DNA of 35,248 bases from positions 1-35,248 of IMG/VR virus record IMGVR_UViG_2563366961_000002; one strand, 5' to 3'. Positions 6,203 to 10,962 of this stretch are shown here, piece by piece; position 1 is the first letter of the stretch, and each line of letters opens with the position of its first letter. The stretch comes from a virus (taxonomy: Duplodnaviria > Heunggongvirae > Uroviricota > Caudoviricetes). The notes under the pieces were generated by a model. It was given only the letters and a program-made list of their open reading frames with translations, was not told where the DNA came from and ran no database searches. A program made the translations under genes and the position numbers.

Positions 6203-6664
6203 ATGGAACTAAAATTTATTGATAACCCTGTGCGATTACAGGCCTTTCTTAACGAGCCAGGCAATACCGAAAATATTGTTGAGCCGGGGCACACGTACTA
6301 CATCAAGCCTGATGCGGTATATCTCGGCATCTACGAAGGATTAGTGCTGGCTGGCGTTCATGAAGTGCGTAACTTCTGGCATAGCGTTGTTGAATGCCAT
6401 GCGGTGTACGACCCCGGATTCCGTGGTGAATATGCACTGCAAGGACATCGATTATTCTGCAAATGGCTTCTCGAAAACTCACCATTCCTTAACAGCATTA
6501 CCATGGTTCCTGACACCACGAAATACGGACGGGCAATTATCCGTTTGCTTGGCGCTACCCGTGTTGGTCATCTTGATGATGCTTATATCAGATGTGGTAA
6601 ACCCGTCGGCGTAACGCTTTATCAGTTAACTCGGCAACAATATAAGGAATTCAGCGAATGTTAA
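6203..6664 (+). CDS. hypothetical protein (153 aa)
   Basis: ORF whose stop overlaps next start (ATGTTAA). Confidence 0.5.
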   Translation: MELKFIDNPVRLQAFLNEPGNTENIVEPGHTYYIKPDAVYLGIYEGLVLAGVHEVRNFWHSVVECHAVYDPGFRGEYALQGHRLFCKWLLENSPFLNSITMVPDTTKYGRAIIRLLGATRVGHLDDAYIRCGKPVGVTLYQLTRQQYKEFSEC

Positions 6665-7335
6665 TTACCCATATAGCTTATAAACATCTCAATCGTGCCG
6701 TATACGAAAAAGGCGGTGATGGTGGTGCCTCTAAAGCTCAGGCGAAGGCCCAGCAGCAGGCAATTGATTTGCAGCGCGAGCAGTGGAATACGGTGATGAA
6801 TAATCTCAAGCCGTATGCAGAAGTCGGATTGCCTGCTTTACAACAACTACAAGGACTGATGACTCTGGAAGGGCAGAATAAAGCCGCGAATGATTTCTTT
6901 GGTTCTGGTTTATATAAAACACAGGCAGATCAGGCCCGTTATCAGAACCTTGTCTCAGCAGAAGCTACCGGGGGGCTTGGCTCAACAGCTACCAGTAACC
7001 AGTTATCTTCCATTGCGCCCATGCTTTATAACAATTGGCTCAGTGGGCAAATGCAAAATTATGGAAACCTGCTAAATGTCGGGATGAATGCGGCATCAGG
7101 GCAGGCAACAGCAGGGCAAAACTACGCCAATAATACCGGACAACTCTTGCAGGGGCTTGGCGCTATTCGTGCAGGTCAGGCGCAGCAGCCATCCAGTCTT
7201 GCGCGTGGTATTGGTGGGGCGGCATCAGGCGCTTTAGCGGGTGCGCAACTTGGTTCCGTTGTTCCGGGTATAGGTAATGTCGCCGGGGCTATTGGTGGTG
7301 GGCTTATTGGTCTTGTTGGGGGGCTTGGATTCTAA
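6658..7335 (+). CDS. Gly/Gln-rich protein with hydrophobic Gly-zipper C-terminus
   Basis: AAGGA upstream; C-terminus GIGGAASGALAGAQLGSVVPGIGNVAGAIGGGLIGLVGGLGF; stop overlaps next start (TAATG). Confidence 0.55.
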   Translation: MLITHIAYKHLNRAVYEKGGDGGASKAQAKAQQQAIDLQREQWNTVMNNLKPYAEVGLPALQQLQGLMTLEGQNKAANDFFGSGLYKTQADQARYQNLVSAEATGGLGSTATSNQLSSIAPMLYNNWLSGQMQNYGNLLNVGMNAASGQATAGQNYANNTGQLLQGLGAIRAGQAQQPSSLARGIGGAASGALAGAQLGSVVPGIGNVAGAIGGGLIGLVGGLGF

Positions 7336-8079
7336 TGGCGACATGGCAACTTGGCGGGCTGCCTAGCATGGCACCGCAAAATGATAATGCTCCTCGTTCT
7401 TCCGTTCCTCAGCCTGTGCAGTATCAGCAGCAGCCAAACGTAGGTTTAATGGCGCTACAGGGGCTAAGAGGCGTTGCTGAGATTAATCAGCAGGCACGTC
7501 AACAACAGCGTAAAGCAGAGTTTCAGAAAGCATATGCCGGGGCTTTTGAGTCTGGAGACAGAAACAAAATGCGCAGTCTTATTTCTGAGTATCCAGAAGA
7601 ATTTGAAAGCGTTCAGAAAGGGATGGGCTTTATTGATGACGACCAGAGAAATTCTATTGGTCATCTTGCGACTAGTGCTCAAATCGCATCTTCGCTCGGA
7701 ACTGGGGCATTTGGAAAATTCATAGCAGATAACGAAGATGAAATGCGTCGTTTGGGAATTTCTCCTGAGTCTGTTGCCGAAATGCATGTTAATGATCCAC
7801 AGGGATTCCAGCGGCTTGCTGGTAGTATGGCACTGTTTTCTCTCGGTCATGAGAAGTACTTCGATATCAAAGATCGAATGGAAGGTCGGGATATTGAGCG
7901 TGGCAAGTTGGCAGAGACGATCCGCAGCAATCAAGCCGGAGAAGCACTTCAGGCGAGAGGGCAGGATATTAGCCGAGCAAATGCGTTAACGTCAGCATAT
8001 GCACCAACAGCCGCAATGCAGAATTACAATCAATACGCGCAAATGTTAAAGGCGGATCCAGAGGGGGCTGCGGCATTTG
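7335..8079 (+). CDS. hypothetical protein, 3' end interrupted by IS1
   Basis: Frame runs into IS1; stop codon TAA 8082-8084 is supplied by IS1 terminal bases. Confidence 0.5.
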
Positions 8080-8094
8080 GGTAATGACTCCAAC

Positions 8095-8598: not shown

Positions 8599-8792
8599 CC
8601 AACGCCATTCATGGCCATATCAATGATTTTCTGGTGCGTACCGGGTTGAGAAGCGGTGTAAGTGAACTGCAGTTGCCATGTTTTACGGCAGTGAGAGCAG
8701 AGATAGCGCTGATGTCCGGCGGTGCTTTTGCCGTTACGCACCACCCCGTCAGTAGCTGAACAGGAGGGACAGCTGATAGAAACAGAAGCCAC
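8517..8792 (-). CDS. insA: IS1 InsA
   Basis: 91-aa ORF with the InsA zinc-finger N-terminus [16 protein letters not shown]. Confidence 0.9.
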
Positions 8793-8856
8793 TGGAGCAC
8801 CTCAAAAACACCATCATACACTAAATCAGTAAGTTGGCAGCATCACCGGGTGATTA

Positions 8857-10962
8857 ATGGCTAAAGCATGGAAAGATGTTATCGCCTCTCCACAGTATCA
8901 GGCGTTAGCACCAGAACAAAAAGCGCAGGCTCAGGAGCAATACTTCAATGAAGTCGTGGCCCCGCAAGCCGGAGAAAGTGTAGCGCAGGCTAAGCAGGCT
9001 TTTTATGCTGCCTATCCACTACCATCAACGAATGAAATAGACCGATCCCAATCAGCAACTCAAAATATTCAACATACATCATCTGATAATTCTCTTGCGT
9101 CAGGGTATGCAAAGTTAGCTACTCAGCAAAGAGAGGGGCTTGAGCGTTCAGCAGAACAGGGAGCCAGTCTTGGGGCTGCGATGCGCGATGCTATAACAGG
9201 CGAAAGCCGAATGACTCCAGAGATGGAGAGACTGCAAAATGTCGACCTTGCCCCAGAGTTAACCTCACTCAGCATGGGTGCTCTAAAAGCTCGATGGTCT
9301 CAACTTTTCGGCTCTGACGCATCTCAGGAAAAGATTCTTCAGAGCATGGGAGCGAAATTAAGGCAGGATGAGAAGGGTAACACTATCGTTTCCCTGCCAT
9401 CCGGTGATTATGCTCTGAACAAGCCGGGTTTATCGCCGCAAGACGTGGCATCGTTTCTGGCTAATGCGCTGGCGTTTACACCAGCGGGCAGGGCTGGAAC
9501 GGTGCTTGGTGCCATAGGAAAATCAGCAGCTACAGATTTAGCACTACAGGGAGCCACCAGCCTTGCTGGTGGAGAAGATATTGATCCGTTACAAACGGTA
9601 ATTTCTGCTGGCATTGGTGGTATTGGTAAGGGGCTGGAAAATACAGCGAGTGCGGTTTCGAGGGCTGTTCGTGGTGATATGTCGCCTGAAGCAAAGGCTG
9701 CTGTCAACTTTGCATCGGAAAGAAATCTGCCGTTAATGACCAGTGACATGCTGAAAGATAAAACCTTTATGCAGAGTCAGGCTCAGACATTAGGCGAAAG
9801 AGTTCCTTTTTTTGGAACCGGTAAGAATCGGCTGAATCAACAACAAGCACGAGAAAATTTAGTCAGAACATTTAGCGATGGTCTGGGTGGCATTTCTGAT
9901 AAACAGCTTTATGAATCTGCGACTAAAGGGCAACAAAAATTCATTGAGGCAGCAGGAAAGCGATATAACCGCATAATTGACGCTATGGGGGATACCCCTG
10001 TCGATCTCTCAAACACGGTAAAAGCTATCGACAATCAGATTGCCGTGTTAAGCCGCCCGGGCAAATCTCAGGATAGAGCCGCGGTAAAAGTCTTGCAGCA
10101 ATTTAAAGACGATATCACCAGCGGACCAAATGACCTGCGTCTGGCGAGGGAAAACAGAACCGATCTTCGAAAGCGATTTATGGCGTCATCTGACACTGTT
10201 GATAAAGATACGCTCCAGAAAGCCAGCGATATTATCTACAAGGCATATACGGCGGATATGAAAAAAGCCGTAGCCAAAAATCTTGGAGCAGACGAAGCCA
10301 TTAATATGGCAAGGGTTGATCGGTCATGGTCTAAATTCAATGACATGATGGGAAGAACGCGCGTTCAAAAGGCAATAGCCAGCGGTAAGGCCACGCCTGA
10401 GGATGTAACAAAACTCGTTTTTAGCCAAAGCCCATCAGAACGTTCTCAGCTTTACAGGCTTCTGGATGACAATGGTAGGCAAAACGCACGAGCAGCCATA
10501 GTTCAGAATGCTGTAGATAAGGCGACTGATCCGTCTGGAAATATCAGTGTTGAGAAGTTTATTAATGCGTTACACCGGAACAGGAAGCAATCAGCAACTT
10601 TCTTTAAAGGCGTACATGGAAAGGAACTGGACGGCGTTATTAAATACCTCAACGATACAAGACACGCGGCAAAAGCGAACGTTCAAAACTTAAATGGTCA
10701 GCAGCTTTATGGATTGTTAGTTGGTGGTGGCATCATAAACGCAGCAGTATTAGCGGGGATGCTAAAAACGGCTGCGTTTGTTGTTCCTGCTGCTGGTGCC
10801 GTAGGCGGAGCAGCGAAGGCATACGAAAGCCCTGTTATACGAAATGCCTTGTTACGTCTGGCAAATACGCCAAAAGGTAGCACAGCATATGACAGAGCGA
10901 TCAGTACGGTCACACAATCGCTCACCAGAGTCGCACAGGCATCACAAAAAGAAGCTCAATAA
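8857..10962 (+). CDS. 701-aa protein with Gly-rich hydrophobic C-terminal segments; possible phage internal/ejection-type protein
   Basis: ATG 10 bp after IS1 end; C-terminus GLLVGGGIINAAVLAGMLKTAAFVVPAAGAVGGAA. Confidence 0.55.
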   Translation: MAKAWKDVIASPQYQALAPEQKAQAQEQYFNEVVAPQAGESVAQAKQAFYAAYPLPSTNEIDRSQSATQNIQHTSSDNSLASGYAKLATQQREGLERSAEQGASLGAAMRDAITGESRMTPEMERLQNVDLAPELTSLSMGALKARWSQLFGSDASQEKILQSMGAKLRQDEKGNTIVSLPSGDYALNKPGLSPQDVASFLANALAFTPAGRAGTVLGAIGKSAATDLALQGATSLAGGEDIDPLQTVISAGIGGIGKGLENTASAVSRAVRGDMSPEAKAAVNFASERNLPLMTSDMLKDKTFMQSQAQTLGERVPFFGTGKNRLNQQQARENLVRTFSDGLGGISDKQLYESATKGQQKFIEAAGKRYNRIIDAMGDTPVDLSNTVKAIDNQIAVLSRPGKSQDRAAVKVLQQFKDDITSGPNDLRLARENRTDLRKRFMASSDTVDKDTLQKASDIIYKAYTADMKKAVAKNLGADEAINMARVDRSWSKFNDMMGRTRVQKAIASGKATPEDVTKLVFSQSPSERSQLYRLLDDNGRQNARAAIVQNAVDKATDPSGNISVEKFINALHRNRKQSATFFKGVHGKELDGVIKYLNDTRHAAKANVQNLNGQQLYGLLVGGGIINAAVLAGMLKTAAFVVPAAGAVGGAAKAYESPVIRNALLRLANTPKGSTAYDRAISTVTQSLTRVAQASQKEAQ

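Follow-up and report, generated by a model that had tools for sequence, protein, structure and literature searches.

Predicted P22-type ejection-protein cassette in an EcCIMP1-type phage-inducible chromosomal island

Results

Homologues of P22 genes 14, 7, 20 and 16 in one cassette

The window analysed here, i.e. the whole stretch of 35,248 nucleotides of the IMG/VR virus record IMGVR_UViG_2563366961_000002, contains between positions 6203 and 10962 a block of four open reading frames (ORFs) that are, as judged by sequence comparison, homologues of genes 14, 7, 20 and 16 of phage P22, followed on the opposite strand by a homologue of the superinfection-exclusion gene sieA. This block, referred to below as the cassette, lies in an island of the kind represented by EcCIMP1, a phage-inducible chromosomal island (PICI). 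An earlier reading of the sequence alone (the original prediction) had described four same-strand ORFs of 153, 225, 249 or more, and 701 aa, and its coordinates and sizes proved exact. The 153-aa ORF (gp14 homologue, 6203-6664) and the 225-aa ORF (gp7 homologue, 6658-7335) are followed by the N-terminal 248 codons of a gp20 homologue (native sequence 7335-8079), a pseudogene whose ORF of 249 aa runs to position 8084 inside an IS1 element, and by an intact 701-aa ORF (gp16 homologue, 8857-10962); all four are on the plus strand. The coupling of start and stop codons that had been claimed for the whole series is found in the first two pairs, with overlaps of 7 nt (6658-6664) and 1 nt (7335), respectively, and the 1-nt overlap of genes 20 and 16 is seen in L001, an IS1-free relative from E. 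coli EC38 whose island sits at thrW and which served as the reference for our junction alignments.

The 153-aa protein matches PF11039 (DUF2824/P22 gp14) with an E-value of 1.5e-61 (207 bits versus a cut-off of 25) and phrog_651 with 1e-66. The 225-aa protein matches PF25688 (P22_gp7) with 1.9e-72 (244 bits versus a cut-off of 28), its residues 16-223 covering profile positions 19-229 of 230, and phrog_598 with 1.8e-69. The 249-aa ORF matches PF16928, the N-terminal domain of the gp20 family (Inj_translocase), with 3.6e-59 (200.6 bits versus a cut-off of 29.7) and positions 1-263 of the 509 of phrog_917 with 5.4e-88, and it begins with MATWQ, which is invariant in the gp20 homologues compared. 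The 701-aa protein found no match in the Pfam search, PF26808 being recorded for its relatives of cassette type B (see below), and it matches phrog_770, the gp16-type DNA transfer proteins, with 3.6e-159 and P22 gp16 itself in BLASTP (30% identity over 482 aa, E = 2e-52). A search of NCBIfam with the cassette proteins gave no matches, and solved structures related by sequence were found for none of the four. Since all four ORFs match their families very strongly, they are evidently true genes and not chance ORFs. The suggestion that they encode phage internal or ejection proteins, or a membrane-inserting complex, is thereby supported by the Pfam and PHROGs families and by the alignment with P22 gp16. 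The alternative of tape-measure proteins does not hold for the window, although lone tape-measure genes are found in this slot in related islands.

The arrangement is that of the last part of the P22 late operon, with the same families, order, orientation and translational coupling and with sieA on the opposite strand after gene 16 (14-7-20-16-sieA in the window, 26-14-7-20-16-sieA in P22). The ejection proteins (E-proteins) of P22 are assembled into procapsids, exit ahead of the DNA and build a conduit across the cell envelope; the gp7 of P22 is packaged in the virion, processed at its N-terminus by the host OpdA and ejected on infection, gp20 is the protein of the periplasmic conduit and gp16 the ejection protein of the inner membrane. 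The likeness extends to a glycine-rich hydrophobic C-terminus in gp7 and a C-proximal hydrophobic segment in gp16. The four proteins had all been called glycine-rich, which holds strictly for the 225-aa protein (16.4% Gly), the other three having 7.7-9.2%. Likewise, of the two hydrophobic Gly-zipper C-termini that had been noticed, the one in the 225-aa protein was confirmed, whereas in the 701-aa protein the hydrophobic Gly/Ala segment comprises residues 617-649 and ends about 50 residues short of the C-terminus. On the other hand, the cassette differs from the P22 operon in that no portal, coat, scaffold, terminase, gp4/10/26, tailspike or lysis genes stand beside it; where P22 has gene 26 before gene 14, the cassette has a satellite primase gene, iterons, its own putative promoter and a small ORF; identities to the P22 proteins are 23-52%; and gene 20 of the window is truncated.

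The gp16 homologue is labelled a pseudogene ('missing C-terminus') by RefSeq/PGAP in L001 (17857-19962) and in another island, L005 (12672-14777). In both the ORF of 701 codons is open and has the same length as in the window, so that the label looks like an artefact of a shorter family model.

DUF2824/P22 gp14 has been annotated just as a non-virion 'head assembly' protein. The AlphaFold2 model of the gp14 homologue (predicted local distance difference test score, pLDDT, 92.9) was matched by Foldseek to SpeG (template modelling score 0.78, E = 2e-9); there were 379 matches in the PDB at E <= 1e-3, and all among the top 50 listed are GNAT-type acetyltransferases. A GNAT acetyltransferase-like fold is therefore predicted for this family with high confidence. 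The acetyl-CoA-binding loop is canonical only in part, with Arg74-Gly75 alone kept (in F-R-G-E-Y-A) of the R/Q-x-x-G-x-G/A consensus. Both Arg74-Gly75 and Cys65-His66 are invariant from the island protein to P22 gp14.

IS1 insertion with an adjacent deletion

The operon had been described as interrupted by IS1, and a 768-bp IS1 with both terminal inverted repeats and with insA/insB on the minus strand is indeed present at 8080-8847; the idea of a simple interruption did not stand. Alignment of both junctions places the flanks of IS1 at L001 positions 17180 and 17848, and the 667 bp between them (17181-17847) are absent from the window. The 9-bp target-site duplication expected of a simple insertion was looked for at this internal IS1 and is not present, which together with the missing 667 bp indicates insertion of IS1 accompanied by an adjacent deletion. 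The deletion removed the last ~225 codons of gene 20 and ends 9 nt 5' of the ATG of the 701-aa ORF. The full-length gp20 of the intact relative has 473 aa, and the relatives compared have 439-488 aa, so the copy in the window is about half a protein. With the C-terminal half of gene 20 deleted, the window's copy of the cassette must be regarded as defective. The IS1/gene 20 junction did not occur in any of the 5,426 complete E. coli genomes searched. Genes 14, 7 and 16 and the sieA-like gene are intact in the window and 98.8-100% identical to their L001 counterparts, and the window differs from L001 by 32 synonymous and 9 non-synonymous differences.

The cassette is carried by a satellite

The synteny check in IS1-free relatives that had been recommended along with the original prediction showed the gene order to be kept, but placed the genes in a satellite rather than in a phage. 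In L001 the element starts at a tRNA-Thr gene beside proA and comprises genes for an integrase and a helix-turn-helix (HTH) protein, antA/B, DUF4222, ash, small ORFs and the primase gene, continuing with a 53-aa ORF, genes 14-7-20-16, the sieA-like gene on the minus strand, and Abi and PerC genes; no capsid, terminase, tail or lysis genes were found in it. A scan with the primase, taking one genome per species, yielded 77 loci, mostly islands of the EcCIMP1-like kind, and homologues of the P22 portal, coat and terminase proteins, which were looked for in these loci, were not found. The window itself displays the primase, the iterons and the att core; it starts inside the ash gene after an IS1, and the integrase and HTH genes are known from the IS1-free relatives. 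From this gene content the cassette is assigned to an EcCIMP1-type PICI satellite and not to a prophage.

EcCIMP1 is a PICI of E. coli MP1, which excises only upon induction of the P22-like phage Kapi1, is transduced by Kapi1 at low frequency, adds superinfection immunity against Kapi1 and leaves Kapi1 titres unchanged after induction (Pick, Stadel & Raivio, ISME J 2025, PMC11773190). The island of the window belongs to the same family, with the same thrW site, the PerC gene and the published EcCIMP1 att core, TCCTATTATC, which is present at 15115-15124. Four of the 14 EcCIMP1 primers match the window, among them the attR and PerC primers. The possibility that the window comes from strain MP1 itself was rejected, since the other ten primers fail and the IS1 positions differ. 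EcCIMP1_017-019 correspond to the cassette of the window; in the EcCIMP1 paper, which found no phage structural genes, they were called 'DNA transfer'/DUF2824 and considered as possible packaging factors, whereas gp7, gp20 and gp16 were not identified and SieA was not mentioned (PMC11773190).

Other satellites provide partial parallels. EcCICFT073, EcCIEDL933 and the capsid-forming PICIs share the backbone of int, alpA, primase and PerC genes and have a helper-exploitation module 3' of the primase gene, but they carry genes for packaging redirection or capsids, whereas in the EcCIMP1-type family the cargo consists of predicted ejected conduit proteins, and genes for a terminase, a capsid or redirection could not be identified. 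Satellites with tape-measure proteins (the mycobacterial EPIPs and the PLE11 proposal; PMC12822802) also encode a genome-delivery protein of the helper type and lack most virion genes. They differ in that they belong to other bacteria and other satellite classes and encode a tail ruler, while the present island relies on a podophage helper and encodes internal ejection proteins.

A SieA-type gene follows gene 16

Directly after gene 16, in the position of sieA in P22, the minus strand at 10982-11596 encodes a polytopic membrane protein of 204 aa, which is a SieA-type superinfection-exclusion homologue (BLASTP E = 8e-08 to P22 SieA; a weak match, 4.4e-4, to phrog_7745). SieA proteins have a cytoplasmic RYPxEA motif, and type B SieA has been described to possess an N-terminal extension (Leavitt et al., PMC10461980). 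In the island protein the motif is found within NRYPGEA (residues 177-183); its hydrophobic segments number about four, and its N-terminus is extended, as in type B SieA, by a stretch that contains an additional one (PMC10461980). Such a protein could be responsible for the superinfection immunity to Kapi1 that EcCIMP1 confers.

At the position of sieA, the islands L004 (14671-15066) and L005 (14796-15185) and the P22-like prophage L006 (14299-14628) encode, all on the minus strand, unrelated proteins of 109-131 aa with multiple transmembrane segments and no RYPxEA motif, which may represent another exclusion protein family. The generalization that a membrane 'Sie' gene on the reverse strand accompanies each cargo was rejected: it holds for three of the four P22-type alleles (the window type, L004 and L005), and the allele with an SLT domain in gp16 has none. 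Two other cargos and the type-B cassette of Leclercia are followed by signal-peptide or lipoprotein ORFs, and nothing convincing was found after the remaining cargos.

A conserved putative control unit precedes the cassette

Upstream of the cassette, an iteron cluster at 5464-5578, in which GTTGGTTCA is present three times in direct orientation (5466-5498) and TGAACCAAC three times inverted (5535-5578), lies directly 3' of the gene for a 919-aa TOPRIM/DUF927 primase (2681-5440); as it adjoins the primase gene, it is probably the replication origin of the island. Between this replication module and the cassette there is a terminator-like hairpin GCCACC...GGTGGC with a T-run (5899-5929, plus strand), followed on the same strand by a 17-nt imperfect palindrome (5939-5955 / 5969-5985) that abuts a TATAAT -10 box (5986-5991) without a properly spaced -35 box, and by the 53-aa ORF that opens the cassette (6025-6186), which is conserved in related islands. 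Alignment of the 200 bp 5' of this ORF from 18 loci, including Escherichia, Citrobacter, Leclercia, Pectobacterium, Enterobacter and Klebsiella, revealed a motif, TTTCAT..GCAAT..TG.AA.TATAAT..TGT, that is conserved whatever the cargo; the hairpin with its T-run, the palindrome, the adjacent TATAAT lacking a spaced -35 box and the small ORF are common to all of them. The segment 5939-5991 is accordingly a putative promoter with an operator. When the region 5441-6210 was used to search for a likeness to lambdoid late promoters or qut, short, unrelated phage matches alone were obtained.

The 53-aa ORF was found in 29 of the 77 primase loci, and its E. coli and Citrobacter versions are 91% identical, with a ratio of non-synonymous to synonymous substitution rates (dN/dS) of 0.02. 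The protein has no Pfam match, its model (pLDDT 87.6) comprises an extended N-terminus and two helices, and a fold search gave no significant match (best E = 4). It is possibly a small DNA-binding regulator, and at the level of a guess the modelled topology is compatible with a ribbon-helix-helix protein.

Alleles, spread and selection

Four P22-type cassette alleles were identified in PICIs at two attachment sites (thrW and yicC/dinD), all with open reading frames. The sister islands at yicC/dinD, L004 and L005, have the same backbone and, at the same internal position, two very different alleles of gp20 and gp16 alone, together with a reverse-strand protein with multiple transmembrane segments. 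The fourth allele (L085) encodes gp14, gp7, a gp20 of 439 aa and a gp16 of 906 aa with a fused SLT domain. In cassettes of type B the order is 14-7-20-16, all four E genes are intact and sieA is absent. Island-specific junctions were searched for in the 5,426 complete E. coli genomes, where the junction of the small ORF with gp14 occurs in 258 genomes and that with gp20 in 214; ~470 of the genomes (~9%) carry a cassette. The closest relatives of the gp14 homologue in the databases, from Citrobacter freundii (85% identity), Leclercia (L036, 84%) and Pectobacterium carotovorum (79%), have the same island context, with AlpA, Bro-N, ASH, primase, an ORF of 53-55 aa and four E genes. Intact copies are conserved in at least three genera besides that of E. 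coli.

Between genera, dN/dS was 0.045-0.07 for gp14, 0.045-0.076 for gp7, 0.067-0.071 for gp20 and 0.073-0.10 for gp16, at dS of ~0.4-2.8; these values come from the type-B allele, not from the window's own, and from comparisons between Escherichia, Leclercia and Citrobacter as well as from a few Pectobacterium pairs, most of the Pectobacterium comparisons being saturated at synonymous sites. They point to strong purifying selection on the type-B cassette.

These data bear on the simplest alternative explanation, namely that the block is an inert remnant of a P22-like prophage that stood in tandem at thrW, lost everything except genes 14-16 and sieA and became fused to the island, with at most sieA being under selection. 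The block does correspond to the last genes of the P22 late operon together with sieA, it lies at thrW, the attachment region of P22, and the copy in the window is degraded by IS1, as another, L086 from Citrobacter, is by a frameshift. However, islands at another attachment site and islands of three other genera have the cassette at this internal position too, type B keeps all four E genes intact in the absence of sieA, and dN/dS is 0.05-0.10 at high synonymous divergence. In addition, a conserved promoter region and small ORF precede the cassette, no other phage structural genes flank it, and dS of ~1-2 contradicts a recent transfer of one remnant across genera. We therefore find this explanation very improbable and, for the cassette family, largely refuted; several of the sequence comparisons argue instead that the cassette is a maintained module.

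Relation to the genes of phages

In a collection of 50,697 phages no record carries the cassette as a block, the best one covering 30% of it, and the matches are patches of 67-89% identity. Recent capture from a sequenced phage was therefore rejected, as no record covers even one third. Identities to the proven helper Kapi1 and to P22 are, respectively, 84% (to Kapi1_055) and 23% for the gp14 homologue, 58% and 52% for gp7, 33% and 37% for the N-terminal half of gp20, and 22% and 30% for gp16. In a true P22-like prophage, L006, gp16 is 90% identical to that of the window. Sliding-window comparison revealed that the alleles labelled A and D agree in the whole of gp16 and in the second, C-terminal half of gp20, their gp20 N-terminal halves being different; L006 has the N-terminal half of gp20 in common with allele D, and the part of gp16 from about residue 80 onward in common with both A and D. 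Such sharp mosaic boundaries indicate an exchange of segments between the cassette and P22-like phages. Exchange of this kind is known for E-protein genes, and very different E-proteins substitute functionally in P22 hybrids (Leavitt et al.).

Other cargos in the same slot

Among the 77 primase loci, those with the small ORF usually encode, within the next 150-500 bp, a large genome-delivery protein of some phage type. Lone full-length tape-measure proteins of 857-1,245 aa occur at ten loci, including ones from Enterobacter, Klebsiella, Pantoea and Chimaeribacter; other cargos are SLT 'lytic tail' proteins of 584-600 aa, a baseplate hub, and an SLT protein of 844-888 aa, which was found at five loci, in three of them with a partner of 565-568 aa and in one with an internal virion protein of 188 aa and a virion protein of 849 aa. 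The rule that virion proteins always fill the slot had to be discarded, because E. coli L084 has a protein of 212 aa there and several loci have short ORFs.

The lone tape-measure gene of the Klebsiella michiganensis island L011 encodes 998 aa. Apart from it, the sole virion-like ORFs of this island are one of 115 aa (13472-13819) that matches the C-terminal part only of a portal protein (phrog_68) and one of 123 aa (21279-21650) resembling Neck1/tail-completion proteins, both of which may be further pieces mimicking the helper. The ~190-212-aa protein that takes the place of a virion protein after the small ORF in L084 (10232-10870) and L034 (13444-14013) has just a weak N-terminal HExxH-like match to peptidases M41/M50.

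Taken together, the P22-type E-proteins, the T7/epsilon15-like SLT internal virion proteins, the lone tape-measure proteins and the baseplate hub suggest a broader generalization, which we put forward tentatively and with more doubt than conviction: an Enterobacterales PICI family may possess a separately regulated slot for ejected delivery proteins of the phage type that it parasitizes, and may routinely replace the DNA-entry machinery of the helper and so determine which cells can be entered, for example helper lysogens protected by exclusion.

Discussion

On balance, we favour the interpretation that the region is an ejectosome (genome-delivery) cassette of an EcCIMP1-type PICI, a satellite of P22-like podophages, which would thus supply its own ejected DNA-conduit proteins. 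In intact copies, induction of a P22-like helper would fire the cassette promoter, leading to synthesis of the gp14-like factor with its predicted GNAT fold and of the satellite's gp7, gp20 and gp16, and the ejection proteins would be loaded into the procapsids of the helper. On infection they would leave the particle before the DNA and form a conduit through the outer membrane, the periplasm and the inner membrane, by which the satellite would control the DNA-entry step, while the linked SieA-type gene would bar incoming P22-like phages from the island's host cell.

As to the purpose, be it escape from exclusion or interference with the helper, we infer it from several considerations. Mutations conferring escape from SieA are located in the C-terminal regions of gp16 and gp20 (PMC10461980). 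As gp20 and gp16 are both the targets of SieA and the minimal cassette found in PICIs, entry into exclusion-protected cells would be the most likely payoff, all the more so because cells in which a helper already resides are the most profitable ones for a satellite to enter. The copy in the window, having no gp20 of its own, would depend on that of the helper.

Several points weigh against this interpretation. That the island proteins enter particles and are needed for transfer we infer from sequence. Since E-proteins load before DNA packaging, they cannot be targeted to satellite-filled capsids alone. EcCIMP1 is transduced at low frequency with Kapi1 titres unchanged (PMC11773190), and the low identity of gp20 (33%) and gp16 (22%) to their counterparts in this proven helper could mean incompatibility rather than escape. 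Phages whose E-proteins differ greatly are excluded by both SieA types (Leavitt et al.), which also weakens the simple idea of escape, and the mosaic structure implies that the apparent conservation stems in part from recent exchange with phages. Finally, there are decayed copies, namely the window, the frameshifted L086 and H87, which has an IS66 insertion; decay is the exception among cassette copies.

Some of the same facts could be read as helper interference or defence, in which the island E-proteins would act as poison subunits that compete in procapsid assembly or disturb the conduit, thereby lowering the infectivity of the phage instead of serving transfer of the island. The slot 3' of the primase gene is the usual place of packaging and interference genes in PICIs (PMC11773190), PICIs carry inhibitors of virion assembly such as Tai (PMC11364771), the cassette proteins are very unlike those of Kapi1, and proteins that cannot be sorted to satellite-filled capsids would suit a poison. 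We nevertheless judge this explanation unlikely: induction of EcCIMP1 left Kapi1 titres as they were, conservation over the full length, including membrane segments, with dN/dS of 0.05-0.10 across genera fits a native function better, and the substitution of divergent E-proteins in P22 hybrids suggests that mixing may not be poisonous.

In yet another alternative, the ejected proteins, being the sole ones that a satellite can send into a new cell along with its DNA, would be kept as helper-independent effectors for establishment or anti-defence (protection of DNA ends, cutting of peptidoglycan, acetylation by the gp14-like protein) and not in order to alter sensitivity to exclusion. The gp16 of type B has an added SLT transglycosylase domain, the gp14 homologue has the predicted GNAT fold, and lytic domains are likewise present in ejected proteins among the other cargos of the slot. 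On the other hand, no domain of known anti-defence function was found, fusion to SLT is common in the gp16 homologues of ordinary podophages, and gp14 has been reported as a non-virion head-assembly protein, which makes this alternative quite improbable in our view.

Satellites hijack capsid size, packaging specificity and tails. If the ejectosome interpretation is true, the DNA-entry step, with its sensitivity to exclusion and to injection-stage defences, would be a further point at which satellites manipulate their helpers, and a mismatched or damaged cassette could explain the low transfer frequency of EcCIMP1. In the literature searched, no report was found of a satellite with its own set of podophage ejection proteins, and the EcCIMP1 paper alone linked a PICI to 'DNA transfer proteins' (PMC11773190); according to a bioRxiv preprint of December 2025, tape-measure proteins "are not present in satellites" save for one proposal (PMC12822802). 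Thus, while the protein families are known and the island family has been published, the presence of a complete, selected P22-type ejectosome cassette with SieA in an island appears to have gone unrecognised. The finding also matters for annotation, as ~9% of complete E. coli genomes hold these genes outside prophages and an intact gp16 is labelled a pseudogene by PGAP in some of them.

Additional observations

Partial IS1 copies lie at both ends of the window, one at 1-91, where it cuts the ash-family gene (homology to L001 begins at position 92, corresponding to L001 9193), and one at 35155-35248, where the ecpC usher gene is cut. Together with the internal copy this makes three IS1 elements within 35 kb, which suggests an IS1-rich strain, and the island copy, flanked and pierced by IS1, may be immobile. 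The islands of the window and of L001 are nearly identical apart from the accessory region (12098-12464, compared with L001 21096-22502), in which an Abi-family gene is present in L001 and not in the window, and the window has genes for PerC (13134-13415) and for a PRiA4_ORF3 protein (14019-14561).

A second island (15125-28894), with a GC content of 0.34-0.43, adjoins the attR of the PICI and replaces the pao genes of L001. It encodes an HTH protein (18866-19582), a capsid-protein-E-like protein (21695-22723) and a Dit-like tail protein (26228-26941), as well as, on the minus strand, an IS3-type transposase (23933-24838) and a tyrosine integrase (27023-28357); it may represent a further satellite or the remains of a phage.

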